In this document: positions 1,251-16,677 of the stretch, piece after piece
How the letters are laid out: each line of letters starts with the position of its first letter
Position numbering within the stretch: position 1 is the first letter of the stretch
IMG/VR virus record: IMGVR_UViG_3300043173_000175
Span: 1 to 56,477 of that record
Direction: 5' to 3' (one strand)
Source of the DNA: a virus
Lineage: Duplodnaviria > Caudoviricetes
DNA: 56,477 bases
The notes under the pieces: model-generated
Seen by the model: only the letters and a program-made list of their open reading frames with translations
Told to the model about the DNA's origin: nothing
Databases searched by the model: none
Program-made: the position numbers and the translations under genes

Positions 1251-1301
1251 GTCCTGCTCCAGGCCAGCGCATCCCTGCGCTTGTGTTCAATCCTTGATCG
1301 G

Positions 1302-1871: not shown

Positions 1872-1882
1872 TCATCTTCTCC

Positions 1883-1920
1883 AAACAAGAAAGGAGCAGA
1901 CCCGGAATGAGTCTGCCCCT
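1883..1920 (-). terminator. Rho-independent terminator after capsid and adjacent gene
   Basis: Minus strand GGGGCAGAC...GTCTGCTCC stem followed by TTTCTTGTTT. Confidence 0.65.
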
Positions 1921-1952
1921 CGCATTGTCGCGCAAAGCGTCCCGCTCCGCTA

Positions 1953-2249
1953 CTACGGGTTGCTGACCGTGATAAACGTCACCAGACCTGCAGCGGATAC
2001 CGTGTTGACCTGTTTCCACGACGAGTCCACGGTGTCCTCCACGAAAATGACGATGTCGCCGACCTTCAGGCCTTTGTCATTGCCATCCGTGATGTAGTTG
2101 TCGGCCACCATCGTCGCCAAGTCGCCGTCGCCGGTTATCTGGCGATACGACCAAAGGGCAACTGAGTAACCGCCATCGTCTGCAGCGAGGTTGTCGCCTG
2201 TGCCAAGGCGCGGGATCATCTGTACTAAATTATCAGGTTTGTAAGCCAC
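1953..2249 (-). CDS. Small protein after capsid, possible decoration/cement protein
   Basis: 98 aa, GTG start with AGGAG RBS, directly after the capsid gene and before a terminator. Confidence 0.5.
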   Translation of the reverse strand: MAYKPDNLVQMIPRLGTGDNLAADDGGYSVALWSYRQITGDGDLATMVADNYITDGNDKGLKVGDIVIFVEDTVDSSWKQVNTVSAAGLVTFITVSNP

Positions 2250-2260
2250 GATAGAATCTC

Positions 2261-3121
2261 CTATGCAGCAGCGAGAGCAGAGCCGTCATGTGCAACGATG
2301 CACACGCCAGAATTCTGCAAGAGCTGTGAGCCCATGTAAATGCTGCAACGAGCCCAGGAATAATCCTGTTCCTCGTCGTAGCCCGCTTTTGCTTCCAGAT
2401 CGTCAGCGTTGTAGGCATGGCCGATCGCTGACTTGTGGAACATATAGCATTCCTCAGTCGCGCTACCGGGGCCGCCGCCACCGTTCAGATTAGGATGCAC
2501 GATCCAGTTGATACCGAGCCAACGGTACGCAACAGGACGATCACGCCATGCCGGATCCGCTGCATCGAACGGCCCGTTCATGGTGTAGTCGCGAGAACTA
2601 AAATCATTCTCGCCCATCATGTAGGCCTCGTAAGCAGGGGTTACGACAAAGGTGATGTTACCGTCCCACGGCACATCGTTGTTGCCCAGAACCGTCTTGG
2701 CCCGCAACGTGCGAAGTGTGTTCGCAACGACTGCAGCGCCGATATTGACAGTGGTCGTGGCAAGCTCGCTGAGGATGTCCTGATCGATCTTACGATTGAT
2801 GACACCCATCGACGTTTTCTGCATGATCGCCCGCTGGTTGCCCTGCGATGCGAAGATGTTGAAATCCGTCTTACGAACCAGATCATGCCATTCGACCAAG
2901 GTCGCGACAGGCTGGGTCAGGTTATCGCCACGAGCCGGAATCAATCCGTTCACGCCGCGAGTCTTGGCGGTTGCGCCGCCAGAATCAGCTACCAAGAAAG
3001 TCGCCTGATTGCCTTTGATGACCGCTTCCGTGGTCGTAAAGGATCTCAGGAGAGACTGGAGCTGCTCGAAACCGGAGATGAATTCCTGCCGGTATTGAAT
3101 TTGAAATGCTGTTTCAGCCAT
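2261..3121 (-). CDS. Major capsid protein
   Basis: 286 aa after scaffold; Q..S.LR, R..D..I, WLG..WI.H and HKSAIG motifs typical of podovirus capsids. Confidence 0.85.
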   Translation of the reverse strand: MAETAFQIQYRQEFISGFEQLQSLLRSFTTTEAVIKGNQATFLVADSGGATAKTRGVNGLIPARGDNLTQPVATLVEWHDLVRKTDFNIFASQGNQRAIMQKTSMGVINRKIDQDILSELATTTVNIGAAVVANTLRTLRAKTVLGNNDVPWDGNITFVVTPAYEAYMMGENDFSSRDYTMNGPFDAADPAWRDRPVAYRWLGINWIVHPNLNGGGGPGSATEECYMFHKSAIGHAYNADDLEAKAGYDEEQDYSWARCSIYMGSQLLQNSGVCIVAHDGSALAAA

Positions 3122-3285
3122 TTGGCTTCTCCCAGATGAAAAGAATAATCCGTTATTCCACTATCGGGTTGGCCTGATTGGCTGTGAGAGGGTTAGCCTT
3201 GCGGGGCCGCTCACATTGCCGGCTCAGGGGCCGGGGAGTCGGTCAGGGCTCAGAGGAGGTTGGCTGACCTTGGTGTGGTATGCGA

Positions 3286-3314
3286 AATTTAAGACAAGCG
3301 GCCCGCCGTGTCAA
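3286..3314 (-). promoter_or_regulatory. sigma70-type promoter for the capsid gene
   Basis: TTGACA-17 nt-TAAATT on the minus strand, intergenic, ~165 nt before the capsid ATG. Confidence 0.7.
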
Positions 3315-3333
3315 CAGGCCGCTGGCCTTTTAA

Positions 3334-3564
3334 CTATCGCCCCGCGGCTGAGTCGGTGTAGACCTGTCGAGCCATGGGCGTTTTGGCCTTTCTGGCATCG
3401 CGGATCTTCTTGTCAGCAATCTGCGCATCAGTCATGGGCGTCACTCCAATCTTACCCTCACCCAGCTCAGGATCGCCCTTGTGCTTCTGGTACTCACGGA
3501 TGTCGCCCCAGTGCCTTGCGACACTTGTCCAGCGAGAGCCATCTCTTCCCCACAGGCGGGCCAT
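3334..3564 (-). CDS. Small basic hypothetical protein
   Basis: 76 aa, start coupled to the upstream stop. Confidence 0.5.
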   Translation of the reverse strand: MARLWGRDGSRWTSVARHWGDIREYQKHKGDPELGEGKIGVTPMTDAQIADKKIRDARKAKTPMARQVYTDSAAGR

Positions 3565-3815
3565 TATGGTGCCATCGGTGTACGGGCCCCACCGAGCCTC
3601 TTGTTAAGCCTTTGGCCCGGTCGGTTGCCCGGTAGCGGAGCCGCTCCGGGAGCCTGACCCGGCTTGATGCCAGTGTATTGCTCAGAGGCACCGGGCGCCC
3701 CGGTTTTGCTGTAATGGCCGCCCTCTCTGAGCTTGGCCTCCTTTGCTTTCTGCTTGGCCGATTTTTTACCCGAGGCCTTAGTGGTGGCTAACGCCATGGT
3801 TTCGAGTGAGCCCAT
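3564..3815 (-). CDS. Small basic hypothetical protein
   Basis: 83 aa, AAGGAG RBS. Confidence 0.5.
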   Translation of the reverse strand: MGSLETMALATTKASGKKSAKQKAKEAKLREGGHYSKTGAPGASEQYTGIKPGQAPGAAPLPGNRPGQRLNKRLGGARTPMAP

Positions 3816-3827
3816 TACCGCATCTCC

Positions 3828-4796
3828 TTATGCTGCTGCTGCCTGATCGATCCTGATTTGATAGAGCTGGCGCAGACGCTCCTGCTTGCCAACATCCTTG
3901 TTGTACTCGGTGCGGTGCTCTGACATGAATTTCTCGAGTTCGGAGATCTCGTCATTGAGAGTCTGGCTCGGATCATGCCCTGGAGGTGTGATCTGGTGGA
4001 TCGGATTGAGCGCACGAGCCATCTCGGCGAACCCCTTGAGCACCTTGGGATCGTTGAGGAAGGCCCTGCCGTCAGCGTAGCGACCATTCAAGAGCTGTTC
4101 CTTGGCGTCCTTGCCGAATTGACCCTCGAGCAGACCGTGAACCAGATTCAGATTCGCCTGATAATCGGCGCCCCACGCGCCGCGCAGCTCAGTCGTCGTT
4201 TCAGCGGAATGATCGTCGTCAAGCGCAAGCTGGATCGCCTGCTGCTGCTCAGCAAAGCCGTTGTACCACTCGAGGGTCGCGTGAGCGATCTCGGGAGGCG
4301 CATTATGGCCGTGAATCGCCAAGAGGTAGTCCTCGAAAATCTCCTTGTCGTTCTCACCCAGGACCAGCCCCTCCGGCAGATTCTCCAGATAGCCGGAAGG
4401 CTCCAGCGGAATGCCGTTCTCTTCGCGGTAGGCCTTGACGTCATCCTCGGTCGCGTCGTCCTTGAGGGCCGCTTTCAGATTGCCGGAGCGAATCGTCTGC
4501 TGGGCCTCGCGGAACGAATTACCGTAGTCCAGCGCCGCGTTGAAGCGCTGCAGCTCCGCGTAATACTTGTCATCGTCGCCGGCAATGCCGCGGCGCCAGT
4601 CCAGCGCTGTGTCATTGGCCTCGAAAAACTTCTCAGGTGTCTCAAAGGCTTTCATCGCCTCAGCGCGTTCGGCGTTATCGCCGACGATCGTCGTCGACCA
4701 GTGCTCCTCGCCCGGGTTGATCGTGGTTACTACGGGCTTGCCCGTTGTTGGGTCTAATGTTGGGTCTACTGTTGGGTCTACTACTGGATCAGGCAT
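3828..4796 (-). CDS. Capsid assembly/scaffolding protein
   Basis: Acidic helical 322 aa protein with L...WG.DY..N motif, between portal and capsid. Confidence 0.7.
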   Translation of the reverse strand: MPDPVVDPTVDPTLDPTTGKPVVTTINPGEEHWSTTIVGDNAERAEAMKAFETPEKFFEANDTALDWRRGIAGDDDKYYAELQRFNAALDYGNSFREAQQTIRSGNLKAALKDDATEDDVKAYREENGIPLEPSGYLENLPEGLVLGENDKEIFEDYLLAIHGHNAPPEIAHATLEWYNGFAEQQQAIQLALDDDHSAETTTELRGAWGADYQANLNLVHGLLEGQFGKDAKEQLLNGRYADGRAFLNDPKVLKGFAEMARALNPIHQITPPGHDPSQTLNDEISELEKFMSEHRTEYNKDVGKQERLRQLYQIRIDQAAAA

Positions 4797-5142
4797 GTCC
4801 TTGTTCCTCAGATTGTGTTGATCGCCTTGCCGCGATCTTGTCGGGATCCGTCCTCGTGGGTGCCGACCTTAACATCCATATGAAAGTCGTTCCGACAAAG
4901 CGCTTGCCAGCGGCAAACGCGGTCGCATGTGTATCTCCGGGCCGATAGGTCTCGTCGTGAGTACCAGCCGCCCGTATCCAAAAATCACACAAAAGCCGTT
5001 GCTGGCGCGCATCGGCCTCGCCACGATGGACCGCACGGAGAGCCTGAATTTCGGCCTCCGTGTAGTCCGGTCGCACCAAAGGATCTTTGTGCGGCAGACA
5101 TTCGTCGATCGACCGCTGGATTTGTGTGAATTCTGGCTTCAT
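4789..5142 (-). CDS. Bbp19-like phage protein
   Basis: D..ATAF..G.R.VG motif, immediately after portal as in BPP-1-like phages. Confidence 0.6.
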   Translation of the reverse strand: MKPEFTQIQRSIDECLPHKDPLVRPDYTEAEIQALRAVHRGEADARQQRLLCDFWIRAAGTHDETYRPGDTHATAFAAGKRFVGTTFIWMLRSAPTRTDPDKIAARRSTQSEEQGHA

Positions 5143-6764
5143 TGCTCCATAGCCTGCTGAGCCTGAGCCGCATCACGAGCTGCCACCGCCCCGCCCTTGG
5201 CGAGTTCGACTTGCTCCTCCATCTCGGCCTGCTCTGCCTGCGCCGCGACAATCTCCTTAACCTGATCCAGGGTGCGCATGTGCTTGGCTTGCACACCAAT
5301 GGCCTCGAGAGAATCGCGAAGCTGCAAACCCATATCCACATGAGCGCCAGCAACAGGATCGAATGCCATCGCCCGCTCAATGAGATCGGCAGACTCGAGG
5401 AATGTCGAGGCCTCTTTGCGCTCGATCGCCTCGTGCAGCGGAGATACAAATTTGAAGTGAATATCCCGACCCTGCAGCTCTCGCGGCATGTCCTGGAGAG
5501 ATCCGAAAGTGCCAGCGCGCAGAAGGCCGTCGAAGGTATCTTCACAAAGTTGGCCGTTGTATTCATGCTCCATCGGCTCGAATAGTGGCAAGGCTGCCCT
5601 GACGTACTCCTCCACGCGCTGACCCGTTTCGAACGCTGTCATGTCGCCCTCAGGCGGCGGCAGCGTTAGTTTGTTGATGTAAAACGCCTCGGCGAGCATC
5701 GACATCTGCGTGTCGCGCTGCTCAAAGCCACGCGGCAAACCACGACGATCCTGAGTGATAGGCCTCAGGACGTCGCCCTTGCGCTCGTCGTACTCGACGT
5801 CAGCCCAAGTGATGCCGCCAGAATAAAGCTGGACGTCGCCGCGAACGGCGTCTTGAGTGGCGATCATAGGGGGTCTGACCGACATCTCACCAGCCTCCAA
5901 CAGCGTCAGGCTCATCGCTTGCAGTAAACGGGCATCCGGCAACCCGGCAACAGCGGCAGGGGAATACGCATATTGCGAGCCGGAGACCGTCTGCCAGCGC
6001 GGGAGGGTGATGCCGTGACTGAAGAGGCCGACCTCGCCCATAATGTGCATATTGGCGACGTCCAGATACACCATGATCCACGGATAGCCCTCACCCTCAC
6101 CATTCTGGCCGCGGTAAATGTCCGTGGAAACTGCGAGCCGCATACACTGGTGCTTGCTCAGCGACTCCTTGTGATCCTTTTTCGAAACCTCGTAATGCAG
6201 GTTGAGGTTCATCTCCTTGAGCTGCTTGATGGTCGGCTTCCACTTAATGTAGATCTCGCCGATCGAACCGTCAGCCATCTCAGCCCACGCAACATCCCTG
6301 AGGTGCCACGTGCGATACAGCAAATGCGGCCTCATCGCGTGATACACCATCTCGCGAGTAATGCAGCACTGGCCGGTCAGCGCGAAATCAGCATCGCCCT
6401 CACTGGTGGCGCGGATAAACTGCGAGCGCCGATCGTACATCATCGCCCGCTGACGCTTGGTGGCCCATTGCAGCCAGCCCTTTGCCTCTTGGCCCAGATC
6501 CTCGTAACCGTCGACCGAGGTCTCAAACCACGCTTTCGCCCTGGGCCTGAGCATCGCCGCAAACGAATTCGATAGGTCGCGGTGCACAAGAATCGGATAA
6601 CTCGAGTACAGGTGCTCGGCGAATTCCTCGCCAATGTACCGGTTGATCGTGAAATCGGCCCGCTGCGGATAGAAGTTTTCAGCGAGTTCCTGCCACAGCG
6701 TCGTGATGGCTTTTCGATCTTTGAAAAGCTGCATCCCGCGCAGAATCAGATCTTGCGGTCTCAT
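5139..6764 (-). CDS. Portal / head-to-tail connector
   Basis: 541 aa; WQELAE..YP.R, RW....G..Y..SPA...LPD...L and MTA.E...R motifs. Confidence 0.9.
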   Translation of the reverse strand: MRPQDLILRGMQLFKDRKAITTLWQELAENFYPQRADFTINRYIGEEFAEHLYSSYPILVHRDLSNSFAAMLRPRAKAWFETSVDGYEDLGQEAKGWLQWATKRQRAMMYDRRSQFIRATSEGDADFALTGQCCITREMVYHAMRPHLLYRTWHLRDVAWAEMADGSIGEIYIKWKPTIKQLKEMNLNLHYEVSKKDHKESLSKHQCMRLAVSTDIYRGQNGEGEGYPWIMVYLDVANMHIMGEVGLFSHGITLPRWQTVSGSQYAYSPAAVAGLPDARLLQAMSLTLLEAGEMSVRPPMIATQDAVRGDVQLYSGGITWADVEYDERKGDVLRPITQDRRGLPRGFEQRDTQMSMLAEAFYINKLTLPPPEGDMTAFETGQRVEEYVRAALPLFEPMEHEYNGQLCEDTFDGLLRAGTFGSLQDMPRELQGRDIHFKFVSPLHEAIERKEASTFLESADLIERAMAFDPVAGAHVDMGLQLRDSLEAIGVQAKHMRTLDQVKEIVAAQAEQAEMEEQVELAKGGAVAARDAAQAQQAMEQ

Positions 6765-7108
6765 TATGGCGTTCCGATTGCGCCCACCGTGAAGTCAAAT
6801 GTCGGCGTTGCGCTGCCGCCAATGACCTGCACACAGCGGATCCGTAGCGCGTTGACCGCGAACGTGATGCGCTCATTGGTAACACCAGTGGCTTCAGTAA
6901 ATGCAGCGCCAGCGATGTCGTACCACTTCTCGGAGGCCTGATCCCATTCCTGAAATTTCACGTTCAGCGTTTCGGCGGTGCCGCTATTCCCGGTGACATC
7001 GAGGAAGGCTGAAAAGTTTTTGGATTCGCCAACTCCGCGATCGTTGTTGGCGGTGCCGAGGCCTTGGCCAACGGCCTGAACAAAAATAATTTCCTGTTTA
7101 CGTGCCAT
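6764..7108 (-). CDS. Hypothetical beta-rich virion-associated protein
   Basis: 114 aa, AAGGAG RBS. Confidence 0.55.
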   Translation of the reverse strand: MARKQEIIFVQAVGQGLGTANNDRGVGESKNFSAFLDVTGNSGTAETLNVKFQEWDQASEKWYDIAGAAFTEATGVTNERITFAVNALRIRCVQVIGGSATPTFDFTVGAIGTP

Positions 7109-7362: not shown

Positions 7363-9002
7363 CGCCCTCTCCTGTGGCCTTTCCTTGGCCCGTAGTTTAC
7401 TTGCGGCCTGCGCTTGTCGGCCATAGTACCCACTCTCTGATCGGGCCGCCAATCTGGCAGTAATGCCTGTGACTTGTCGCCCTCGCTCCAGCACATCTGC
7501 ACGGCATCGCCGCGATCCGGTGAGCGCTTGAGTAATTTCACGACATCCTTTTTCGGTGTGACCTTGATGCCATTGGGCGTCAGCTCCCAGTGGACTGCCG
7601 TGAGATCCGAGACAAGCATCTGATCGTCGGGCAGCGCGATCGGTGAACCACCGTCCTGCCCAGGATCCAGAGCCTCGCGAAAGCGCCAGATGATCTCTGC
7701 TCGCTTGTTGAAAAATCGCAACTTCTGGTCGACCGTGCGCCGAATCGACTTGTCCATGCCCAGATGCACGTGAATGTCCATGCCCTTTTCTTTGAGATGG
7801 CCTGCGGCCTGTGCACCTGTTGTCTCACCGCCATCGAAGATGATTTTCGCCGCATTGCGGTGATGCTTGACCACGTAGCCGGCCAGATCCGAACCGTGTG
7901 GCTCAGTGCCCTCACTGGCAATATCGCGGCCCTTACAGACTAAAAGCGGCGCGAACCAGCCATCGTGACGCCGTGCGATCGCGATGTCGTCGACGCCGCG
8001 GGCACCGTCAACACCAAGCGCGCATTGGGGGATCTGAAACGGCGGGTCGGGTCGCCAGCGAGCTTGCGCCAGTCGGATCCACTCGGTCGGGATAACCTGT
8101 TCAGGATCATCCTGGCGAGCCGCCATGAAGTTGCCATCTCGGATCGCCGAGCGCAGCGGCTCGGGTAGAGCGTCCAACTGTGCGGCGTAACCCGAATCAG
8201 CGTAGAACGGATTGTCACTAAGAGTGCCGGGTATGAAGGTTCGCGACATAGGAATGAGAAACCGGGTCGTGCCGTCATCATTGAATTGACCACTATCGAT
8301 TTTTGCATCGGGCCCCGAGACCCAGAAGTCCTGACCGTCCTCATCGGAAACACACCATCGCAGCTCTCCCGGCTTGGCCGGATTCGGATAGCGATTATCC
8401 AGCCACGGCGCGAACATCGGAATAATCCAGTCACCAGCCGAACTGGTCGGCGGGTTGCTGGCGAATACGGTCCTGCAGCGCTGAGTCGGATCCTCAGAGC
8501 GCACCCAGCCCATCAAAAACCTGACTTGGTCCTCGCGATTCTGCACCACCTCGTCGATCGCCAAAAGATCGTGCGCTTGGCCCTGCCAGTGCTCGTGATC
8601 GGTCGACTTAGCCAAACCACCGAAATCAATGACCTTGCCGTTCACCGTTTTCAATCTGGGCGGTATCGAGCCGTTGTAGCCCTTTTCGGTGCCATTGATC
8701 GCCTTGGCGCGGTCGGTCAGCGCGTTCAAATCGGTGTAATGCTTGCGAATAATCAGCGTTCGCTGGTGATACTCGGTCGCAAGGCCCAGGATCAGATCCG
8801 TCTTACCACAGCCACCTGAGCCGCCGTAGAGCATAATATCGGCCTTGCAATTCACCGCATCGAGCTGCTTGCCCGGTGTCGGGAACCACAGCCGGTGCGC
8901 GGAGCGCTCGCTCAAAAACTGGTCGATCTCGTTCTTTTTCTCATCCGACATGACGCCATAATTGGCCATCAAGTCCTGCATCAATGCGCTTTGTTCACTC
9001 AC
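7359..9002 (-). CDS. terL: Terminase large subunit
   Basis: Walker A YGGSGGCGKT, Walker B LLAIDE, ASNPP, nuclease GVD.A and SPDRGDA; GTG at 9002 overlapping the upstream stop is preferred to the track start at 9170. Confidence 0.92.
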   Translation of the reverse strand: MSEQSALMQDLMANYGVMSDEKKNEIDQFLSERSAHRLWFPTPGKQLDAVNCKADIMLYGGSGGCGKTDLILGLATEYHQRTLIIRKHYTDLNALTDRAKAINGTEKGYNGSIPPRLKTVNGKVIDFGGLAKSTDHEHWQGQAHDLLAIDEVVQNREDQVRFLMGWVRSEDPTQRCRTVFASNPPTSSAGDWIIPMFAPWLDNRYPNPAKPGELRWCVSDEDGQDFWVSGPDAKIDSGQFNDDGTTRFLIPMSRTFIPGTLSDNPFYADSGYAAQLDALPEPLRSAIRDGNFMAARQDDPEQVIPTEWIRLAQARWRPDPPFQIPQCALGVDGARGVDDIAIARRHDGWFAPLLVCKGRDIASEGTEPHGSDLAGYVVKHHRNAAKIIFDGGETTGAQAAGHLKEKGMDIHVHLGMDKSIRRTVDQKLRFFNKRAEIIWRFREALDPGQDGGSPIALPDDQMLVSDLTAVHWELTPNGIKVTPKKDVVKLLKRSPDRGDAVQMCWSEGDKSQALLPDWRPDQRVGTMADKRRPQVNYGPRKGHRRGR

Positions 9003-9235
9003 ATGCAGCACCCCCACAGTGGAGGACCAGAACCGACCCAGATCAACGGATAGCGCATTTCGATCGCCTCCATGCGGCGGCGAATGATGTCGGCCTTGCT
9101 CATCGGTTCGGCATCCTTGACCGTAATCATCTCGCCCTTGATCGTGACCAGCGTCCTGTCCGACAACCACACGCCTTGCTCGTCATAACGATCGAGCAAT
9201 TCCCGCTGTGCCCTGCTAAGCCAATTACTCGTCAT
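8999..9235 (-). CDS. Hypothetical protein
   Basis: 78 aa, overlaps both neighbours. Confidence 0.5.
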   Translation of the reverse strand: MTSNWLSRAQRELLDRYDEQGVWLSDRTLVTIKGEMITVKDAEPMSKADIIRRRMEAIEMRYPLIWVGSGPPLWGCCM

Positions 9236-9560
9236 CTTTTGCCCAGACCTTTTTGTAATTCATCGCGAACCACTTGGCCTCTTCGTCCGAGGCAAACTCA
9301 ATCAGTTCGCCATTGGACACCGCCTGCTGAAACGCCTCATTGGCCTCCATTTTTTTCAGCGAGCCATCTGCCATGCGCTGAATCGTAGGGTAGGCGTAGA
9401 ATTTTCCGTCAGCCTCACCAGACGCCATGAAATGCGTCCCGGTCATGCCGCCGCCCATATCGATGCTCGGCGAATTTTCAGGGTCCAGGATGCGCTTTAC
9501 AAAATCCTTTTCCTTGTTCGCCTGCAGAATCGCGTTGATTCGATCGGTTTCGTCACTCAT
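9225..9560 (-). CDS. Hypothetical protein
   Basis: 111 aa, ATGA-coupled to upstream ORF. Confidence 0.6.
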   Translation of the reverse strand: MSDETDRINAILQANKEKDFVKRILDPENSPSIDMGGGMTGTHFMASGEADGKFYAYPTIQRMADGSLKKMEANEAFQQAVSNGELIEFASDEEAKWFAMNYKKVWAKDDE

Positions 9561-9697
9561 TCCCAGTCCTCATTCGCTACCGGATCGGTCGCCGGCAACA
9601 CCGCCAGCATCACCGTGCCGTCCAGCGTAAACGCCAGATGCCGCTCACCAATCACCAAAACCCCAAAATGTGCATCATTCCAGACCCGCTCGCTCAT
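9557..9697 (-). CDS. Small hypothetical protein (46 aa)
   Basis: Read manually (MSERVWNDAHFGVLVIGERH...); ATGA overlaps at both ends. Confidence 0.45.
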   Translation of the reverse strand: MSERVWNDAHFGVLVIGERHLAFTLDGTVMLAVLPATDPVANEDWE

Positions 9698-10203
9698 TGA
9701 ATCGCCTTTATCGCTTCGGAAACCGTGATTATGCCACCGTACATCGGCTTGGCCAGCTTGCCAGCAATAACCCGCAAGGCCCGCTGGCGCTCGTTCCGAT
9801 CACTGTGCAAACGGCAAAATTCACGATATTCAGCCCGGTGCGCCTCAAGCTCCTGCTCCAATCGGAACTCAGGATCCCGCAAAAACCGCCGCCACCAGAC
9901 CTCAGCACCATTGCGACGATACCAGCGATTCAATTTCCGCTGCTGCTCGAAATGCACCGCCTCGTGCGCCACCAGCTCCGGGGAGAGCCCACCTCCCCCC
10001 GGATTGTAGATAATGCCGCCGTAAGCGAAGATATTGCGCTCCGATACCGGCAAAACCGCCCGGATCGAGCGAATGTTCGGCGGCCAGTCATTGACGATCG
10101 ATATACTCACTTCAATCGCCGGCACTTGCCACAGCGGATCACAGGTGGCCTGTTTTTCCGGTATTTTGGAATCATCAGGCCAAGACAGCCCAGAAGGCCA
10201 CAA
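9694..10203 (-). CDS. HExxH zincin-like metalloprotease domain protein (start uncertain)
   Basis: LVAHEAVH followed by E.ELEA motif. Confidence 0.6.
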   Translation of the reverse strand: MWPSGLSWPDDSKIPEKQATCDPLWQVPAIEVSISIVNDWPPNIRSIRAVLPVSERNIFAYGGIIYNPGGGGLSPELVAHEAVHFEQQRKLNRWYRRNGAEVWWRRFLRDPEFRLEQELEAHRAEYREFCRLHSDRNERQRALRVIAGKLAKPMYGGIITVSEAIKAIQ

Positions 10204-10237
10204 ACTACGCCGTTACGGGCTGGCCTACTTTTCCAGC

Positions 10238-10582
10238 TCACCCGATTTTCCGGGCCGCCTTGGCAGCGCCATGCTCAGCAGCACCCCCCAGATAGGACGC
10301 CTTTTTGTCGTCATGCACCTCAGCCTCAGTGGGCTCGGGCGGAACCTCACCCGCCGCAGGATCCTCACCCAGCTCGTCGGGAGCATCATCCTCAGCAGGA
10401 GCCTCGTCCTGGATCTCGGGCACCGGATCAGCAGCAGCATCCTCGCCAGCAGGATCAGCCACAGGAGCAGCCGGATCCGTACCCAGTATCTCCTCAGCAC
10501 TCACCACAGCCACATCATCGGGCCCAATTACGACCTCTTCTCTTGTTTCACTCACATCACTCTCCTCGTCCAAAACGGACAT
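10238..10582 (-). CDS. Highly acidic low-complexity protein
   Basis: D/E/A/P-rich ORF beginning MSVLDEESD; start chosen by inspection. Confidence 0.5.
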   Translation of the reverse strand: MSVLDEESDVSETREEVVIGPDDVAVVSAEEILGTDPAAPVADPAGEDAAADPVPEIQDEAPAEDDAPDELGEDPAAGEVPPEPTEAEVHDDKKASYLGGAAEHGAAKAARKIG

Positions 10583-10616
10583 CACAAAATCAAAATCCCG
10601 CAATAACGGGAATTCC

Positions 10617-10919
10617 TCAGCCGGCCTGCACATCGCAAAGCCGAAACGCGCACAGCGCAAATATCTGCTGCTTGGCATCGTCATACGCCAGCTCACGACC
10701 CAGCGACTCCTCAAAATTGTCGGGATTCGCACACGCCGACTTGCCGACCACCGTAAAGCCATTCCGCAGCGTGATAACGCACACCGTCACCGTGGTCCCA
10801 ATAAAATACTGATACTGCGATGCCAGTATCTCGTTCTCAACCATCTCCGTGGTCACGTACCGCGTCTTACCATCTGCTTCGAACTGCTTTTGCAGCTCCT
10901 CTCTATTGCGACTTGCCAT
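10617..10919 (-). CDS. N4 Gp49 / Sf6 gp66 family protein
   Basis: TTVTVC.ITLRNGFTVVG.SAC..P.NF...LGR..A signature; GGAG RBS before ATG at 10919. Confidence 0.8.
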   Translation of the reverse strand: MASRNREELQKQFEADGKTRYVTTEMVENEILASQYQYFIGTTVTVCVITLRNGFTVVGKSACANPDNFEESLGRELAYDDAKQQIFALCAFRLCDVQAG

Positions 10920-11343
10920 CTTCACTCTCCAGTTGCGGGCCCTCCTTGGCCACGATAAATGCCCTCTCGGGCGAAATTTTCGACATCTGCGCAGCAGCAA
11001 CTCGACCAAGCCGGTCAGGCCTCAAATCGATGCCACTCAACGAACCACCGGGCAACTCACAACCCTCAATAGCCGCGGGCTCCGGCAGGCCAGCGGGCAC
11101 GATGGAACTACGCGACCGCAGCCACTCGCGGCGATCCGGGCTCAGTGCATAGCCCAGGACACCCAAGAGCTTCTCGGTGCCACGCGGGCAGGCCTCAAAA
11201 TCAGAAAAAGACACTTTTTTCTCCGGGCTGAATTTTTTGGAAAATCGTGAGAGCTGGGCCCACCCACTCTGACCCGGCGCCATCAGCGGCCCCCCCCGGT
11301 CGCGGAAGGCACCCCCCTCGAAAAACTGCTCGCTCGTGGTCGG

Positions 11344-12030
11344 TCATTCCTTATCCATTGGGCTGGTGGCGGTGGCCGGGTTTGGCTCTACCACTGGGCC
11401 CGTTGCAGGCTGCGACACCTTAGGTGTCGGCTGGGCTGGGCTGGCTGGCATGGTGGCGGGCATGGCGTGTCCTTCAATGGTGACGCCCGCGGCCTGATCC
11501 TCGAGCATGAATAGAGCGAAGCGGCGCATCTTCTCCCGCTCACTGAGCCCGGTGATGTCTACCCGGTGGGACACCTCGCCGCCGTGCTCGTGCTCGACCC
11601 GGTCGCCGAAGGTCTTAGGCAGCAGCTTGGACAGCAGCCACTTGCGAGAGTCAACACGGAGCCGGCTGCGCTGTATGTGCTCCTGATCGACGGCCTCATA
11701 CTCGTGCCCGTTCCTGCCTATCCGGGTCACATAGTCTGTGGTGCCATCGTCGGCGATCTCGAGTATTTCCTCAGCCCAAGCCTGATAGAGGCCCTCCCGC
11801 GCCCGAGCGTATTGGACGGCGAACCCAGCATTCTCGACCAGCTCCTTATGGATGCGCTCCCTGCTGGGCATGTCCGGGTCGCGGGCTATGCTCCGCATGG
11901 ACTCGCCCTCGAATGTGCGCAGACATATAGACTCGAGCAAGGAGGGCGCCAGAACCATGGGCGGGCGGCCTATACGTCCTGAAGGGCTATTGCTTACAGG
12001 ATCCTTGCTATTGCTGGTTTTCGAGGTCAT
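11344..12030 (-). CDS. terS: Terminase small subunit
   Basis: GRP, GESMRSI..D..MPS, YARARE, EI.EIADD and RLRVDSRKWLLSKLLPK.FGDR motifs. Confidence 0.85.
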   Translation of the reverse strand: MTSKTSNSKDPVSNSPSGRIGRPPMVLAPSLLESICLRTFEGESMRSIARDPDMPSRERIHKELVENAGFAVQYARAREGLYQAWAEEILEIADDGTTDYVTRIGRNGHEYEAVDQEHIQRSRLRVDSRKWLLSKLLPKTFGDRVEHEHGGEVSHRVDITGLSEREKMRRFALFMLEDQAAGVTIEGHAMPATMPASPAQPTPKVSQPATGPVVEPNPATATSPMDKE

Positions 12031-12089
12031 TGGTCGCTCAGGGTTACAGGCCTGCCGGCTTGGCTCGAGTCTATCCTTTAATGGGCCAC

Positions 12090-12119
12090 TTGACACCCGG
12101 GCATTCTGTCCGGTAAGGT
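12090..12119 (+). promoter_or_regulatory. sigma70-type promoter of the plus-strand operon with operator-like inverted repeat
   Basis: TTGACA-18 nt-TAAGGT; the spacer holds the imperfect palindrome CGGGCA-TTC-TGTCCG (12098-12112). Confidence 0.7.
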
Positions 12120-12153
12120 CGGAGACCTTCACTTACTACGACAGGCCCCACCC

Positions 12154-12336
12154 ATGAACGAGCACGACATCGCCGGTTTAATCTTCGCCGCCCTTTTCGG
12201 CTGGGCACTTCTAAGGCCACTATTCATGGCCACCACCACATGCCCCGGTCATGGTTCAGACCTGATCGCCGGCACTTGCCCAGATTGCACCATTGAGGCT
12301 GACGACTGGGCCACCACTACGAGGAGCACGACATGA
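12154..12336 (+). CDS. Small protein with N-terminal hydrophobic helix and Cys/His cluster
   Basis: 60 aa first ORF after the promoter; CPGH...CPDC. Confidence 0.45.
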   Translation: MNEHDIAGLIFAALFGWALLRPLFMATTTCPGHGSDLIAGTCPDCTIEADDWATTTRSTT

Positions 12337-12722
12337 GACCAGCACCATGGAACAACGCAGAGAATAGGGCGCTCATCGCTCTATATTTCGCCATGCTTGG
12401 CCGAGCCAAGACTGGCACCGCCTACGTCAAAGCGGCCATGATTCGAAAGGCCCAGAAAAACGACCAACGAACATGGCAACACCCTTACGCCGGCCAGCTC
12501 GAGAAGCGCAGCCGCGGCAGCATCGAGGCCAAGCTAATGAACGCAAGCGCCGCCCATGCAGCGCTCAGGCCAGACGCCGAGACCATGGCGGCCCACGGTT
12601 ACAAAGCATGGGGCAATTATCAGGCTTCACTAAAGGATGCCATGCGCCGCATGATCGAAAGCCGCGAGAGCCAAACCGGCCCCGACTCCGAAAGCCTGCC
12701 AGCTCGTGAGCTGTTCTCGTGA
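12333..12722 (+). CDS. Stand-alone domain resembling the N-terminus of HNH/DUF3883-type endonucleases
   Basis: W...E.......YF.ML, RS.GSIE.K..N.SA and NYQ..L motifs; no nuclease domain. Confidence 0.55.
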   Translation: MRPAPWNNAENRALIALYFAMLGRAKTGTAYVKAAMIRKAQKNDQRTWQHPYAGQLEKRSRGSIEAKLMNASAAHAALRPDAETMAAHGYKAWGNYQASLKDAMRRMIESRESQTGPDSESLPARELFS

Positions 12723-13672
12723 CAGTAGTCACACTCCCACGGCTGGACGTCACCCGGCTGGCTGCAGACTACTCGCAGGCAGTCAGGGAGGCGCTCACCG
12801 CTGGCCAGCTCGAGAAGGTTAGGCGCGGCGATGCCATCGCCGACGATTACACCGACCCGGGCGAGCTGATGGCCGAGGCCATCTATCTACAGCGACCCAA
12901 CGCGGCCAGCATCGCCGACTATGCCGACGACATGACCACGGCCCACGATAGGGCCGAGGCTGCCGGCTGGCACTTGTCGCGCATCCTTATTGCTTGCGAG
13001 TTCTCGGGCACCGTTCGCGATGCTTTCGCGGCTCGAGGTCACAGCGTTATGAGCTGCGACATTCTCGAGACCGAGGCCCCGGGCGCTCACTATGTCGGCG
13101 ATGTTCGCGACGTACTGGCCGATGGCTGGCACCTCGCCGTGATGCACCCACCTTGTACTTATCTCGCAGCCTGCCAGCTCTGGCGCTGTCTGCCGAAACA
13201 TGCAGCCAAGCACCCGGGCCGCGCCGCCAAGAAAGCCGAAGCGCTCGAGTTTATCCGCGATCTAATGGCCGCGCCGATCCCACGCTGGGCGCTCGAGAAT
13301 CCCAAGGGCGCCATCGGTACAGAGATCCGGCCCATGGCGCAGATGATCCAGCCGTATGAATTCGGCCATGACCATTCGAAGCAGACCGGGCTATGGCTCG
13401 AGAACCTGCCGCCCCTTGTCAAGGATCCCGCCCAGTTCATACCGGGCCGCGATGCCATCGACAACAACGGCAACCCCTGCAAACGCTGGGCGAATCAATG
13501 CGACGGCTCAGGCGCCGACCGCATGGGCCCCAGCGCCGACCGCGGCCATAAGCGCTCCCGGTTCTTTGCCGGCATCGCCGACGCCATGGCAGCCCAGTGG
13601 GGCGGCATCGCCGAAACACTGACAGCGCCGGCACACGCGGCGCCCATTGGACAGCTCGAGCTATTCGCATGA
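12719..13672 (+). CDS. Phage DNA cytosine methyltransferase with ~85 aa N-terminal extension
   Basis: LIACEFSG.VR.AF...GH...SCD, HPPCTYL (PC catalytic), ALENP and K.T.LWL motifs. Confidence 0.75.
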   Translation: MTVVTLPRLDVTRLAADYSQAVREALTAGQLEKVRRGDAIADDYTDPGELMAEAIYLQRPNAASIADYADDMTTAHDRAEAAGWHLSRILIACEFSGTVRDAFAARGHSVMSCDILETEAPGAHYVGDVRDVLADGWHLAVMHPPCTYLAACQLWRCLPKHAAKHPGRAAKKAEALEFIRDLMAAPIPRWALENPKGAIGTEIRPMAQMIQPYEFGHDHSKQTGLWLENLPPLVKDPAQFIPGRDAIDNNGNPCKRWANQCDGSGADRMGPSADRGHKRSRFFAGIADAMAAQWGGIAETLTAPAHAAPIGQLELFA

Positions 13673-13676
13673 AATC

Positions 13677-13743
13677 GAGTGACCGCCTCAAGCAGACCGG
13701 GCCCACCATCCTGGGTCTGGCCTGCTTGGGGGGAATCATTCCC
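13677..13743 (+). repeat. Intergenic hairpin repeat, copy 1
   Basis: GAGTGACCGCCTCAAG-[CAGACCGGGCCCA...TGGGTCTGGCCTG]-CTTGGGGGGAATCATTCCC. Confidence 0.95.
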
Positions 13744-13781
13744 CGGGCGCCGTTTGGCGTCATCATTGAAAGGAGCACGAC

Positions 13782-14099
13782 ATGAGCGCAACACAAGAGC
13801 AACGCGCCGAAAGCGTCGACCGGGCTGTAAACGGTCAGAGCGTCAGGAACTACGAGGCCATCATTGCCGGCTTTGCAGAGCGCGGCATTGCAGCCACGCC
13901 ACGTGAGGACGTTTTCACCTATAACGCATGGCGCGGCCTTGGCCGGCAAGTTCGAAAGGGCGAGCACGGCATCAAGATCGAGACATGGATACCTTGTAAG
14001 AGCAAGGCCGACGAGAACGGCGAGCGCGAAAGCTACAAGCGCCGCAAGGTCACGGCGGTTTTTCACGTATCGCAGACCGACGCCACCGAGGAGGGCTAA
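13782..14099 (+). CDS. ArdC-like N-terminal ssDNA-binding domain (antirestriction-associated)
   Basis: TYNAW..LGRQVRKGEHG..I and VFHVSQTD motifs of ArdC-N/DUF1738. Confidence 0.75.
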   Translation: MSATQEQRAESVDRAVNGQSVRNYEAIIAGFAERGIAATPREDVFTYNAWRGLGRQVRKGEHGIKIETWIPCKSKADENGERESYKRRKVTAVFHVSQTDATEEG

Positions 14100-14102
14100 G
14101 CC

Positions 14103-14381
14103 ATGGCCACCACTAAAAAGCCGTGGACGCGGCACAAGATCAAGGACAGCGCTCTCAAGCAGCTTGCAGCAGCCGCCAACAGGCCGACCGGCAGCCTATA
14201 CCCGGGCATCGGTTACGGGGCGCCCTCGAGCCGTGCGGCGCTGATTGCCCGCGGGCTGGCCGTTGACGTCAAAATCGAGAGCGACGGACGCGGCCCCTAC
14301 AGTTCCGGCAATGTCTGGGACTGCCGCATAACTGAAGAGGGCCGGCAGGCCCTCGAGGAGGCCCGGGCCGCTGGCTGGTGA
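14103..14381 (+). CDS. Hypothetical protein (possible winged helix)
   Basis: 92 aa; AL..RGL...ITEEGR.AL pattern. Confidence 0.55.
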   Translation: MATTKKPWTRHKIKDSALKQLAAAANRPTGSLYPGIGYGAPSSRAALIARGLAVDVKIESDGRGPYSSGNVWDCRITEEGRQALEEARAAGW

Positions 14382-14437
14382 GTGACTGCCTCAAGGGCCC
14401 GGGCCGCTGGCTCGGATCCTTGGGGGGAATCATTCCC
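14380..14437 (+). repeat. Intergenic hairpin repeat, copy 2
   Basis: GAGTGACTGCCTCAAG-[GGCCCGGGCCGCTGGCTCGGATC]-CTTGGGGGGAATCATTCCC. Confidence 0.95.
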
Positions 14438-14457
14438 GACAACACAAGGAGCACGAC

Positions 14458-14619
14458 ATGAGAACAGCACAAGCCGCGGCGCTGGCCGCTTTGACCCTCG
14501 CCCTTGGGGCGCTGGCCTATGAATTGACAATGACGGCCACCCTGCTGGGCGGTTATCTACCGCTGGCATTTATCACCGCCGCCCCGGTTCTTGGCTTTGC
14601 ACTGGGGAGGGCGGCATGA
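14458..14619 (+). CDS. Small membrane protein (53 aa, two hydrophobic segments)
   Basis: Read manually: MRTAQAAALAALTLALGALAYELTMTATLLGGYLPLAFITAAPVLGFALGRAA; AAGGAG RBS. Confidence 0.65.
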   Translation: MRTAQAAALAALTLALGALAYELTMTATLLGGYLPLAFITAAPVLGFALGRAA

Positions 14620-14960
14620 GGAACGCGAGATTCTGGGAGTTTATCAACGGGGCCCCGGTCAAGCTGACGCTGACACCGGGCCAGACCTTGCACCATTACC
14701 AAGGCGGGCCGACTGATGAGGGCTGGAGCAGCGAGGCGACGAGCTGGCGCCTTTCGAACAATGGCCGGATGCTGCGCCGCGAGCATACCAGCGACGGCGC
14801 CGACTGTGACGGCAGGGTGTCGAGCGGCTGCGATGCCGTGGCCTTGCCGGATCCTGCCGACTTCGTGCCGCTCTACTATTCGCCGGAGCTGAGCCGGCCA
14901 TACTGGCGCGATGCCGGAGGCTGGCAGCGCGACCGGCAGGCCGAGGCTGCAGGTTACTGA
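14616..14960 (+). CDS. Hypothetical protein
   Basis: 114 aa, ATGA overlap; stop abuts repeat 3. Confidence 0.65.
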   Translation: MRNARFWEFINGAPVKLTLTPGQTLHHYQGGPTDEGWSSEATSWRLSNNGRMLRREHTSDGADCDGRVSSGCDAVALPDPADFVPLYYSPELSRPYWRDAGGWQRDRQAEAAGY

Positions 14961-15016
14961 GTGACCGCCTCAAGTGCCGGGGCCCAGGGTGCCGGCACTT
15001 GGGGGGAATCATTCCC
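14959..15016 (+). repeat. Intergenic hairpin repeat, copy 3
   Basis: GAGTGACCGCCTCAAG-[TGCCGGGGCCCAGGGTGCCGGCA]-CTTGGGGGGAATCATTCCC. Confidence 0.95.
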
Positions 15017-15054
15017 GCGGGGCCGTTTGGCCTCTCACTGAAAAAGGACAAATC

Positions 15055-15549
15055 ATGTTCACATCACAACGATACATCGACGACCGGAGCGGCGAGATTG
15101 TGACCCAGATCCCGCTAATGGAGATCGCCCACTTTGACGAGTACAACGGCCCGCTACAGGCTGGCGACGTCAAGCTGCCAGACGCCAAGCCGGAGCCGGA
15201 AGCCGACCCGCTGGCCGCTGCAATCGTGGGCGCCATTTTCGTCTATACGTGGGGATACGATCAGACGAACGCTTACTTTTACGAGGTCGTTAAGCGCACT
15301 CCCAAGTCAGTCATGGTGCGCCGGCTCGAGGCCATCGAAACTCCCGACCCTGACGGCTTTATGACCGGCCAGACCGTGCCGCAGCCCGGGCAATTCTGCC
15401 GGGATCAGTTCCAGCACGTTATCCCGGCCCAGCGCAAGGCCCTGAAGGCCTACCGCTACGGCGACGAGGCCGAGCCGATGCTGACGTTCGATTATGGCGT
15501 GGGCACCCTTTGGAACGGCGAGCCGGTACGGGTTAGCCATTACGCATAG
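15055..15549 (+). CDS. Hypothetical protein (WGYDQTN motif)
   Basis: AAGGA RBS before ATG at 15055; 164 aa. Confidence 0.65.
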   Translation: MFTSQRYIDDRSGEIVTQIPLMEIAHFDEYNGPLQAGDVKLPDAKPEPEADPLAAAIVGAIFVYTWGYDQTNAYFYEVVKRTPKSVMVRRLEAIETPDPDGFMTGQTVPQPGQFCRDQFQHVIPAQRKALKAYRYGDEAEPMLTFDYGVGTLWNGEPVRVSHYA

Positions 15550-15551
15550 GC

Positions 15552-15612
15552 GAGTGACCGCCTCAAGGGCCCGGGGCCGTTTGGCCTCGGATCCTTGGGG
15601 GGAATCATTCCC
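15552..15612 (+). repeat. Intergenic hairpin repeat, copy 4
   Basis: GAGTGACCGCCTCAAG-[GGCCCGGGGCCGTTTGGCCTCGGATC]-CTTGGGGGGAATCATTCCC. Confidence 0.95.
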
Positions 15613-15629
15613 GACACAAGGAGCACAAC

Positions 15630-15890
15630 ATGAGTATTTTCGAAGAACTGAAGGGCGCCGGCTGCGAGCTGGACAGCCACGAGGGCGATCTATACGTCAA
15701 GGACACGCCGGAAGCGCGGGCCATCCTGGATGGTAACGGTAAGAAGGTCGACGGCTGGAACGTGCAGCCGTTTACCAGCAACATCGACGGCGCCCGCTGG
15801 CTTGATATTCCTTTCGCTTATCGTCCCTACTGGGACAGGCTCGAGGCGCTGGCCGCCAAGATTATGAAGGGCCGCGAGGCGCGGGCATGA
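15630..15890 (+). CDS. Hypothetical protein
   Basis: 86 aa, AAGGAG RBS. Confidence 0.65.
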   Translation: MSIFEELKGAGCELDSHEGDLYVKDTPEARAILDGNGKKVDGWNVQPFTSNIDGARWLDIPFAYRPYWDRLEALAAKIMKGREARA

Positions 15891-16132
15891 GCTGGCCAAT
15901 CCGCTGGCGCGTCACGTTTTATCAGTGCGGCGTCACTGGCATAGAGCCGGAATTCTACCGGACGAAAGCGGCAGCCCAGCAGGCCGCCGCTGAGTTCCTG
16001 CGCGAGATGCTACCAATGCCCGGGCACCACCGGGCCGGCAGTATCTACCGCGACGGCTGGGCCCGTATCGTCGACGGTATGGGCGCCACTGAGGCGCTGG
16101 CCGAGGTTGAGGACAGGAGGGCCGAGCAATGA
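15887..16132 (+). CDS. Hypothetical protein
   Basis: 81 aa, ATGA overlap. Confidence 0.6.
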   Translation: MSWPIRWRVTFYQCGVTGIEPEFYRTKAAAQQAAAEFLREMLPMPGHHRAGSIYRDGWARIVDGMGATEALAEVEDRRAEQ

Positions 16133-16332
16133 ATAAGCGCGAGTTTATCAGGCAGAACCGGGCCGAGATTGACGCGGTAATTAACGCCGTGATTTATCGG
16201 CACGATGGCAACGGTGGGCGCGGCACTATCCCAGACCCGCCGCCAAGCCGTGACGACGACGAGCGGGCCGGCTGGCTCGCCAATGACGAGGGCCTGTACT
16301 GCTGGGCCCGATCGGAGGGCGTGAAGATCTAA
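16129..16332 (+). CDS. Hypothetical protein
   Basis: 67 aa, AGGAGG RBS; W..NDEGLY.W motif. Confidence 0.65.
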   Translation: MNKREFIRQNRAEIDAVINAVIYRHDGNGGRGTIPDPPPSRDDDERAGWLANDEGLYCWARSEGVKI

Positions 16333-16334
16333 GC

Positions 16335-16395
16335 GAGTGACCGCCTCAAGGGCCCGGGGCCGTTTGGCCTCGGATCCTTGGGGGGAATCATTCCC
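16335..16395 (+). repeat. Intergenic hairpin repeat, copy 5 (identical to copy 4)
   Basis: Same 61 bp as 15552-15612. Confidence 0.95.
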
Positions 16396-16416
16396 GCAAC
16401 CAAGGAGCACAAGACC

Positions 16417-16677
16417 ATGAAAAATAACCCGCAATTTGTCAATGGCTGGCAAGCGCCGAGCTATACCGCCAAGATCCAGCGCAGCGCTTATTTGCGCCGG
16501 CTGATTTGGTGGGCGTGGCGCCGCTACTGCCTGAACGAGGACTATTACCGAGTCATTCGGCGATTCACTGGGCCGCGGCCACGTGGCACTAATCAGGTCA
16601 GCACCATCAAGGCCAACGCTACCGCCTTTCGCTACTACATTGAGCCGCGCACTCGCCGGCCATGGGGGGCGGCGTGA
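16417..16677 (+). CDS. Basic hypothetical protein
   Basis: AAGGAG RBS, ATG at 16417. Confidence 0.6.
   Translation: MKNNPQFVNGWQAPSYTAKIQRSAYLRRLIWWAWRRYCLNEDYYRVIRRFTGPRPRGTNQVSTIKANATAFRYYIEPRTRRPWGAA

Follow-up and report, generated by a model that had tools for sequence, protein, structure and literature searches.

What does a short hairpin do when it returns at one gene boundary after another in a phage operon? The question is raised by a 56,477-bp IMG/VR virus record (IMGVR_UViG_3300043173_000175, examined over its whole length and called the window below), the genome of a podophage with a CheckV completeness of 100%, in which five copies of a folded repeat punctuate part of an early operon. 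As far as sequence searches and covariation can establish, the repeat is an undescribed structured RNA family, confined to one lineage of uncultured phages; it is well supported and so far uncatalogued, and it sits at the boundaries of anti-restriction and DNA-modification cassettes. Among the functions weighed here, RNase III-type punctuation of the early messenger RNA leads, tentatively.

Five copies of one hairpin in the window

An earlier note on this DNA had placed copies of a repeated hairpin at 13677, 14380, 14959, 15552, and 16335. Exact matches to the two arms bear out all five positions, each on the + strand:

13677..13741, + strand: hairpin copy 1, long apex (68.8 bits; −42.9 kcal/mol, z −5.5), after the DNA methyltransferase gene (stop 13670-13672)
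14380..14435, + strand: hairpin copy 2 (74.4 bits); stop 14379-14381 overlaps its first two bases; next start 14458
14959..15014, + strand: hairpin copy 3 (73.9 bits); stop 14958-14960 overlaps its first two bases; next start 15055
15552..15610, + strand: hairpin copy 4 (75.1 bits); stop 15547-15549; next start 15630
16335..16393, + strand: hairpin copy 5 (74.8 bits); stop 16330-16332; next start 16417

The 16-nt 5′ arm (GAGTGACNGCCTCAAG) has exactly five perfect matches in the window and the 19-nt 3′ arm (CTTGGGGGGAATCATTCCC) likewise has five, against 0.01 expected, all of them on the + strand. A sixth place resembling the 5′ arm, at 38763 with two mismatches, was dismissed as a chance match that has no partner arm and lies inside a minus-strand open reading frame (ORF). 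Copies 4 and 5 have 99% identity across 67 nt.

Each window hairpin contains 24-27 bp. The base is a 6-bp helix, GAGUGA/UCAUUC, that includes one G·U pair; above it, AA bulges out of the 3′ strand, two C-G pairs follow, a G bulges out of the 5′ strand, and the stem continues as CCUCAAG/CUUGGGG. Folding thus returns the pairing that the earlier note had proposed, its internal loop resolving into a CC/GG step flanked by bulges, and it also agrees that the apical stem exists in three sequence versions (copy 1; copy 3; copies 2, 4, and 5) that all stay paired. Folded as + strand RNA, the five copies reach free energies of −33.9 to −42.9 kcal/mol (z −3.0 to −5.5), whereas the − strand folds, at −24.0 to −33.8 kcal/mol, are 7-12 kcal/mol weaker.

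Separately, the apex of copy 2 contains one half of an exact 17-nt direct repeat (14360-14376 and 14396-14412; 0 expected by chance), the other half being the final codons of orf92, immediately ahead of its stop. This repeat may be a trace of how the copy 2 apex arose, by slippage or conversion.

Distribution of the family

A covariance model, R1, was built from eight sequences: the five window copies and three diverged copies in L006, a locus with a methyltransferase 80% identical to that of the window and the only one to carry the element among 80 loci around methyltransferase relatives. R1 found five further copies in two IMG/VR contigs, L129 and L141, and these two were the only sources of real copies among the 80 stretches that were listed and scanned with R1 out of 107 matched by a loose IMG/VR pattern. 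Rebuilt from 13 copies as R2, the model was scanned over 38 related records (35 of 80 portal relatives, on contigs of at least 10 kb, and the three known carriers) and detected the element in 14 of them; copy number among relatives ranges from 0 to 5. A stricter pattern returned 20 metagenome contigs, all true members, with 27 hits of 27-70 bits. Pooling of non-duplicate sources, which leaves out six loci that duplicate others, gave 46 hits that represent 43 distinct copies, with element lengths of 53-76 nt across the family.

Outside this lineage the searches were negative. Rfam 15 gave 0 matches at the gathering score in the whole window, and for positions 13400-16700 at E values up to 10 it gave only chance-level hits of at most 21 bits; over the element itself no Rfam family reached E 10 other than an 18-bit microRNA chance hit on the opposite strand. 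The exact 17-mer of the 3′ arm occurred in 0 other IMG/VR records. Among 50,697 cultured-phage records, blastn with copy 4 gave just a 20-nt chance match and no family member, and the 7.9-kb hairpin region had as its sole match to cultured phages a methyltransferase piece of a Stenotrophomonas phage. No family member was found in prokaryotes sampled as one genome each for 185,579 species; the 56 pattern hits there, one per contig, scored at most 25.3 bits, below the 26.5-75 bits of members. The search with a covariance model through Rfam and IMG/VR that the earlier note had suggested therefore yields 43 distinct copies in IMG/VR and metagenome contigs and no Rfam match. The sequence family is new; the class to which it belongs, intercistronic hairpins of early mRNA, is already known.

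Covariation and strand asymmetry

In an alignment of the 43 distinct copies fitted to the covariance model, 92.7% of cells pair, and changes on both sides occur at 19 of 25 pairs (171 cells). None of 500 shuffles reached any of five pairing measures, and pairing fell to 37-49% when partner columns were slid by 1-3. A model-independent MAFFT alignment of eight copies gave a similar result, with 92.5% of cells paired and double changes at nine of 26 pairs. Compensation extends into the basal helix, where A-U is replaced by G-C in five copies and G-C by C-G in one.

The base of the element is conserved as GAGUGAYC... on the 5′ side and ...GGGAAUCAUYCC on the 3′ side. Three of its pairs, G5·U, U6-A, and A8-U, are invariant in all 43 copies, and the AA bulge and the CC that follows the helix are near-invariant. 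Among 25 distinct copies that were folded, with 15-28 pairs each, G·U cells outnumber A·C cells by 80 to 11; as an A·C cell corresponds to a wobble pair in the complementary strand, this excess argues for an RNA of the sense strand, and the + strand folds of these copies are mostly far stronger than the − strand folds. These observations uphold the suggestion of the earlier note that the G-U pairs favour + strand RNA, and they point to selection on the structure as RNA on the sense strand. A DNA palindrome within the 3′ arm, GGGAAT-C-ATTCCC, was also considered as an operator and set aside because, in variants with a broken palindrome, compensation in the 5′ arm preserves the long-range helix.

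The apices fall into two classes with their own regularities. A short class, nine of the 43 members, carries the heptaloop GUCAGAG (once GUGAGAG) on a covarying stem of 4-8 bp; examples are the following:

L349, 1259-1313 and 1501-1555: GUCAGAG class
L351, 1501-1555: GUCAGAG class
L373, 1839-1892: GUCAGAG class
L363, 348-401: GUCAGAG class

In the long class, ...CCUGGG... is common to many apices. Such shared loops and apices indicate that the apex is not free to vary in all lineages.

Position relative to stop codons and ribosome-binding sites

In the window the distance from the end of the upstream stop to the hairpin is 4 nt for copy 1 and 2 nt for copies 4 and 5, in copies 2 and 3 the stop overlaps the first two bases of the hairpin, and the start codons that follow, with AGGA or AAGGAG sites, lie 19-40 nt beyond the last paired base. 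For all five copies the earlier note had this right: each is at or within 4 nt of a stop and ends shortly before a ribosome-binding site.

The same placement recurs across the family, where 40 of 41 evaluable copies lie between the stop of an ORF and a Shine-Dalgarno site and start codon on the same strand. In 23 copies the upstream ORF terminates, in frame, at the conserved UGA of the 5′ arm; in nine, the stop is a UGA four bases earlier that overlaps the first two paired bases, and in eight it lies 3-10 nt upstream of the conserved UGA. The one copy placed otherwise, in L141, is in a 5′ leader behind a long non-coding stretch. The ribosome-binding site never falls within the hairpin, and the next start codon, with its AGGA- or GAGG-type site, lies ~10-41 nt beyond the element, a handful of automatic start calls at 7 nt or less being spurious. 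These distances form two groups, and the longer group contains a second small hairpin, seen twice in the window:

13746..13761, + strand: small second hairpin GGCGCC-GUUU-GGCGUC, downstream of copy 1 and ahead of the ArdC-N gene (start 13782) and its ribosome-binding site
15019..15034, + strand: small second hairpin GGGGCC-GUUU-GGCCUC, downstream of copy 3 and before start 15055

The mini-hairpin GGCCGTTTGGCC forms the apex of copies 4 (15575-15586) and 5 (16358-16369) and occurs separately downstream of copy 3 (15021-15032), while a variant of it follows copy 1 (13746-13761); this small hairpin seems to be modular, able to nest within a copy or to stand in tandem with one. A conserved leader at ribosome-binding sites (AAGGAGCACGACATGAG-like) recurs ahead of several early genes, at 12317-12337, 13766-13786, 14442-14462, and 15614-15634, with and without a hairpin, and relatives carry their own versions (CGAGGAGCACGA..., GCGAGGAAATA...). 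We also considered readthrough of the UGA, as a SECIS-like signal or as a fusion with the next gene, and it is at chance: 12-13 of 43 copies have an open frame that leads from the UGA into the following gene, matching the expected third.

Candidate functions

The earlier note had offered three functions: elements that process or stabilise mRNA, excised small RNAs such as RNA anti-CRISPRs, and single-strand recombination sites analogous to integron attC. Anatomy, strand asymmetry, position, and comparison with phage T7 fit the first of these best; transcription through the element, cleavage, the enzyme, and an effect on stability are steps that we infer from that fit. Our leading interpretation, to which we would give somewhat less than an even chance, is accordingly worded by analogy: the element may be RNase III-type processing and stabilising punctuation of an early anti-defence mRNA. 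The repeats would then be cis-acting structured RNA in the sense strand of an early polycistronic message, and the double-strand-specific RNase III of the host would cleave the stem, probably in a single strand and at the conserved bulges. After such a cut the upstream message would end in a protective 3′ hairpin, the next ribosome-binding site would be preceded by a short leader, and the anti-defence cassettes would be expressed and decay as separate units.

Several properties of RNase III and its substrates are consistent with this interpretation. In the Nicholson review (PMC3867540), the idealised substrate of the Escherichia coli enzyme is a helix of 22 bp, and the 24-27 pairs of the window copies likewise make an imperfect hairpin of 2 to 2.5 helical turns; the same review states that loops, bulges, or mismatches at the target limit RNase III to cutting one strand, and that most T7 transcripts carry an RNase III site. 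Single-strand cuts that leave a folded 3′ end stabilise the message according to PMC3867540 and PMC6993053, the latter naming R0.5 and R1.1 as T7 RNase III sites. The AA and G bulges are present in the stem of the element, and their relation to any cleavage site is a prediction.

When intergenic gaps of the T7 early region were folded, they gave hairpins with the same lower sequences and differing tops. The gap between T7 genes 0.4 and 0.5 folds into a 50-nt hairpin with an upper stem closed by AAGG/CCUU; its basal 5′ strand (AGUGAUAG) holds the stop of gene 0.4, and it ends 17 nt before the start of gene 0.5. This hairpin was also the best match of R2 in T7 positions 400-7000 on both strands, at a non-significant 10.8 bits (E 0.13), and the third- and fifth-ranked matches, with lower scores, fell in the gaps before genes 1.1 and 0.3. 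In T7 these three gaps hold the RNase III sites R0.5, R1.1, and R0.3. The layout of the element matches the T7 sites on every anatomical point tested, an analogy from which homology and cleavage would be extrapolations.

A number of observations weigh against RNase III-type punctuation. There is no significant sequence homology between the element and the T7 sites, so the likeness is one of layout. An invariant G·U, a fixed AA bulge, a CC tail, and a GUCAGAG loop are not known requirements of bacterial RNase III; conservation beyond what the nuclease needs indicates a specific protein partner equally well. The element is also dispensable, being carried by just three of nine near-complete relatives (1, 1, and 3 copies) and absent from G012, a complete syntenic relative in which bare ribosome-binding spacers join comparable genes, including homologues of two window cassette genes. 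Finally, a stop in the stem requires the helix to be melted by ribosomes that terminate there, and this melting could hinder cleavage.

Because its presence is optional and its junctions are mosaic, two other readings stay under consideration. In one, which we regard as unlikely to be the primary role, the repeat would be a recombination linker that provides portable short homology for the exchange, duplication, and loss of accessory cassettes through Erf/RecE-type recombination of the phage or through that of the host, any RNA role being secondary; it is probably not exclusive of RNase III processing. The model for such a role is the PeSL of T4-type phages, described in PMC2839356 as a regulatory stem-loop cassette that lies between small non-essential genes, mediates modular shuffling, and forms mini-circles. 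The window phage does encode an Erf-like annealing protein and a RecE-like exonuclease. Across the element, of the nine downstream gene families that occur two or more times, eight have 2-6 different families upstream of them, and of the eight upstream families that occur as often, seven have 2-4 different families downstream; copies at such mosaic junctions, varying in number among relatives, leave room for a homologous, PeSL-like recombination role. The window copies are, moreover, 85-97% identical in basal columns, against a mean of 68% between sources, while the genes between them are unrelated, which suggests recent spread or homogenisation in this genome. Yet mosaicism was counted at element-bearing junctions alone, and bare junctions may be equally mosaic, as phage early regions usually are. 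Plain homology leaves the compensatory changes, the G·U strand bias, and the invariant unpaired bases unexplained, and with neither a promoter nor a T-run terminator the element is not a PeSL. In one DNA run that contains the phage and may be its source sample, weak evidence that consists of contigs only, no joint between copies was seen: the contigs break at repeats, and the four joints listed, with short sides of 22-36 letters, include none that links copies.

The other reading, rather improbable in our estimate, is an operator or switch that tunes the next cistron, either through an RNA-binding protein that reads the conserved base or the GUCAGAG loop, or through refolding of a base melted by the ribosome. 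The features at issue are the G·U pair, the AA and G bulges, and the CC tail, and the invariance of basal pairs described above, the near-invariant bulge and tail, and the recurrence of GUCAGAG on covarying stems are what such recognition would predict. In the refolding variant, the terminating ribosome would melt the base, and the 3′ arm would form a small hairpin, GGGAA-UCA-UUCCC; in 40 of 41 copies the stop falls within the basal helix or immediately ahead of it, and self-pairing of the 3′ arm is possible in 90.4% of cells. Shuffles, however, give 90.0%, the alternative hairpin has no covariation, its residues being too conserved for covariation to show, and the short class needs a shifted register. 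The position of the ribosome-binding site, always outside the hairpin, and the arrangement of comparable genes in G012 without the element also speak against an operator. No RNA-binding or nuclease domain was found among the window ORFs scanned or ten flanking genes of relatives, the domains there being methyltransferase, ArdC-N, RadC-JAB, and queuine tRNA-ribosyltransferase-like. The two readings could also be combined in a portable junction module, anchored at the stop codon and with a dual role beyond that of a nuclease target, a view we hold to be just as doubtful as the operator, in which the DNA would supply homology for plugging in cassettes and the RNA would be read by a dedicated partner, with folding reset by the ribosome. 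The partner would recognise the invariant G·U, the AA bulge, the CC tail, or the GUCAGAG loop, and the fate of each cassette's message would be coupled to translation of the cassette before it.

We consider the remaining explanations very unlikely. An excised small RNA that acts as a decoy for host defence, for example an RNA anti-CRISPR that mimics a CRISPR repeat, would accord with the location of the copies among anti-restriction genes, and basal cleavage would free a hairpin RNA of 50-60 nt. With the Rfam repeat models as the test set, however, there is no match, including to CRISPR-DR models at E 10; a length of 53-76 nt and a variable apex are unlike a repeat mimic, the element is part of a coding operon, and its absence from the 185,579 species genomes means that no host array with such a repeat was found. 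On this evidence the second proposal of the earlier note is scarcely credible. Factor-dependent or U-less terminators or attenuators that meter read-through of the early operon, an equally remote prospect, would suit strong GC-rich hairpins between cistrons, and PeSL stem-loops act as terminators in the account given in PMC2839356. Here, though, no copy is followed by a T-run, no promoter-like site lies downstream for restart, and one relative (L141) has its copy in a 5′ leader. A search of positions 9000-21500 gave three sigma-70-like promoters against 4.3 expected, none at a copy, though these may not be the promoter type of the host, and the ten terminator-like sites include none at any copy.

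Least credible of all is a single-stranded DNA site on the + strand, be it an attC-like recombination site or a hairpin for replication or priming. Integron attC sites have constant ends and a variable paired centre and lie directly behind ORFs. The element shares this design, DNA hairpins tolerate G·T pairs, and the junctions are mosaic. Against this, there is no GTTRRRY/RYYYAAC core, the arms reading GAGTGAY... and ...GGGAATCATYCC; an integrase was not found among 40 window ORFs scanned; and every evaluated copy is oriented with its flanking genes, a stop before and a ribosome-binding site after, which fits an mRNA element. With the wobble pairs favouring the sense strand as well, the attC analogy of the earlier note finds no support. 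An RNase P substrate or tRNA-like minihelix was also considered, CCA following the helix in 30 of 43 copies, and was rated unlikely because a cut on the 5′ side would remove the upstream stop codon.

If the element is an RNase III site, T7-style mRNA punctuation reaches an unrelated group of high-GC podophages, and the family would supply compact natural insulator parts. Whichever reading holds, a stop in the stem, optional presence, and mosaic junctions together make a tractable case in which RNA processing, gene shuffling, or both may be at work.

Genomic context

The recognisable genes of the hairpin-bearing operon have anti-restriction or DNA-modification functions, with small ORFs without matches in between:

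12719..17771, + strand: hairpin-punctuated part of the early operon
12719-13672, + strand: DNA methyltransferase
13782-14099, + strand: ArdC-N antirestriction protein
16662-17771, + strand: DarB-like methyltransferase-related protein, matching the middle of giant DarB-like proteins

With the five copies numbered H1 to H5, the order is DNA methyltransferase, H1, ArdC-N antirestriction protein and orf92, H2, orf53 and orf114, H3, orf164, H4, orf86, orf81, and orf67, H5, and then another orf86 with the DarB-like methyltransferase-related protein. The hairpins are confined to cassette boundaries; within cassettes the genes abut or overlap without one. The operon points away from the terminase gene. 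ORFs of the window also encode the portal/adaptor, major head protein, tail fibres, and a helicase, and no tRNA genes were found in its 56,477 bp. The terminase shares ~40% identity with its counterparts in Limnohabitans phage DC33 and Bordetella BPP-1-like podophages. On the − strand, a 1625-aa protein (41133-46010) and an 864-aa protein (51236-53830) match phrog_9880, a family of 2231 positions and unknown function, at its positions 931-2205 and 269-744, respectively, and they may be a giant virion or injected protein split in two pieces.

In relatives, genes that adjoin copies encode a RadC-like JAB protein and a queuine tRNA-ribosyltransferase (DpdA)-like protein, and a further ORF next to copies is PP-loop/PAPS-reductase-like as judged by eye. 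Such cargo is found at three relative loci:

L344, 993-1493, − strand: cargo gene in a relative
L376, 1591-2325, + strand: cargo gene in a relative
L006, 9974-10977, + strand: cargo gene in a relative

The element thus accompanies DNA-modification and anti-restriction cargo generally. In G012 (L356), positions 15100-19000 of the same variable region hold PP-loop ATPase/PAPS-reductase-like genes, again a by-eye call, linked solely by CCCGAGGAGGTA-type spacers. The lower-GC relative L141 has, at ~4790-4880 on the minus strand, non-coding tandem short repeats between two copies, three of ~15 nt (GAAATTGAAGCGACC-like) and two of CAGTGGACAAT; these are iteron-like and may mark an origin.

Comparison with known systems

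Host chromosomes also carry intergenic palindromes that are co-transcribed into mRNA, such as REP/BIME in enterobacteria and Correia/NEMIS in Neisseria, the latter reportedly cut by RNase III. Like the present family, these are imperfect palindromes just after stops that fold in mRNA and vary in copy number between close genomes, and they affect mRNA processing or stability. They differ in having hundreds of chromosomal copies, whereas the present family occurs in 0 of 185,579 species genomes; neither a target-site duplication nor a transposase was seen with it. Integron attC sites differ in their R/L box consensus and integrase, neither of which is found here, and the sense-strand wobble bias is a feature of the present element.

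PeSLs resemble the element as repeated short regulatory stem-loop cassettes between small non-essential genes of a plastic region, with gene content that differs on both sides. They combine a strong sigma-70-like promoter with a terminator stem-loop, however, whereas the present element has neither a promoter-like site nor a T-run and is constrained by RNA pairing in one strand.

The nearest likeness in anatomy is to the RNase III processing signals of T7 early mRNA, which Dunn and Studier are said to have described in 1983 as R0.3, R0.5, R1, R1.1, and R1.3. The phages themselves are unrelated, the present terminase grouping by its ~40% identity with BPP-1-like podophages; the present stems are GC-rich and, in the long class, extend ~19-21 bp beyond the bulge, compared with 9-13 bp in T7; and the present family is optional among close relatives. 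In both cases, nevertheless, several sense-strand hairpins of ~50-60 nt stand between the cistrons of an early operon that bears anti-restriction genes, each with a conserved lower part that contains unpaired bases and with a variable top, and, as in the T7 0.4/0.5 gap, the upstream stop lies in the basal 5′ strand and the next start follows shortly after the hairpin, there by 17 nt.

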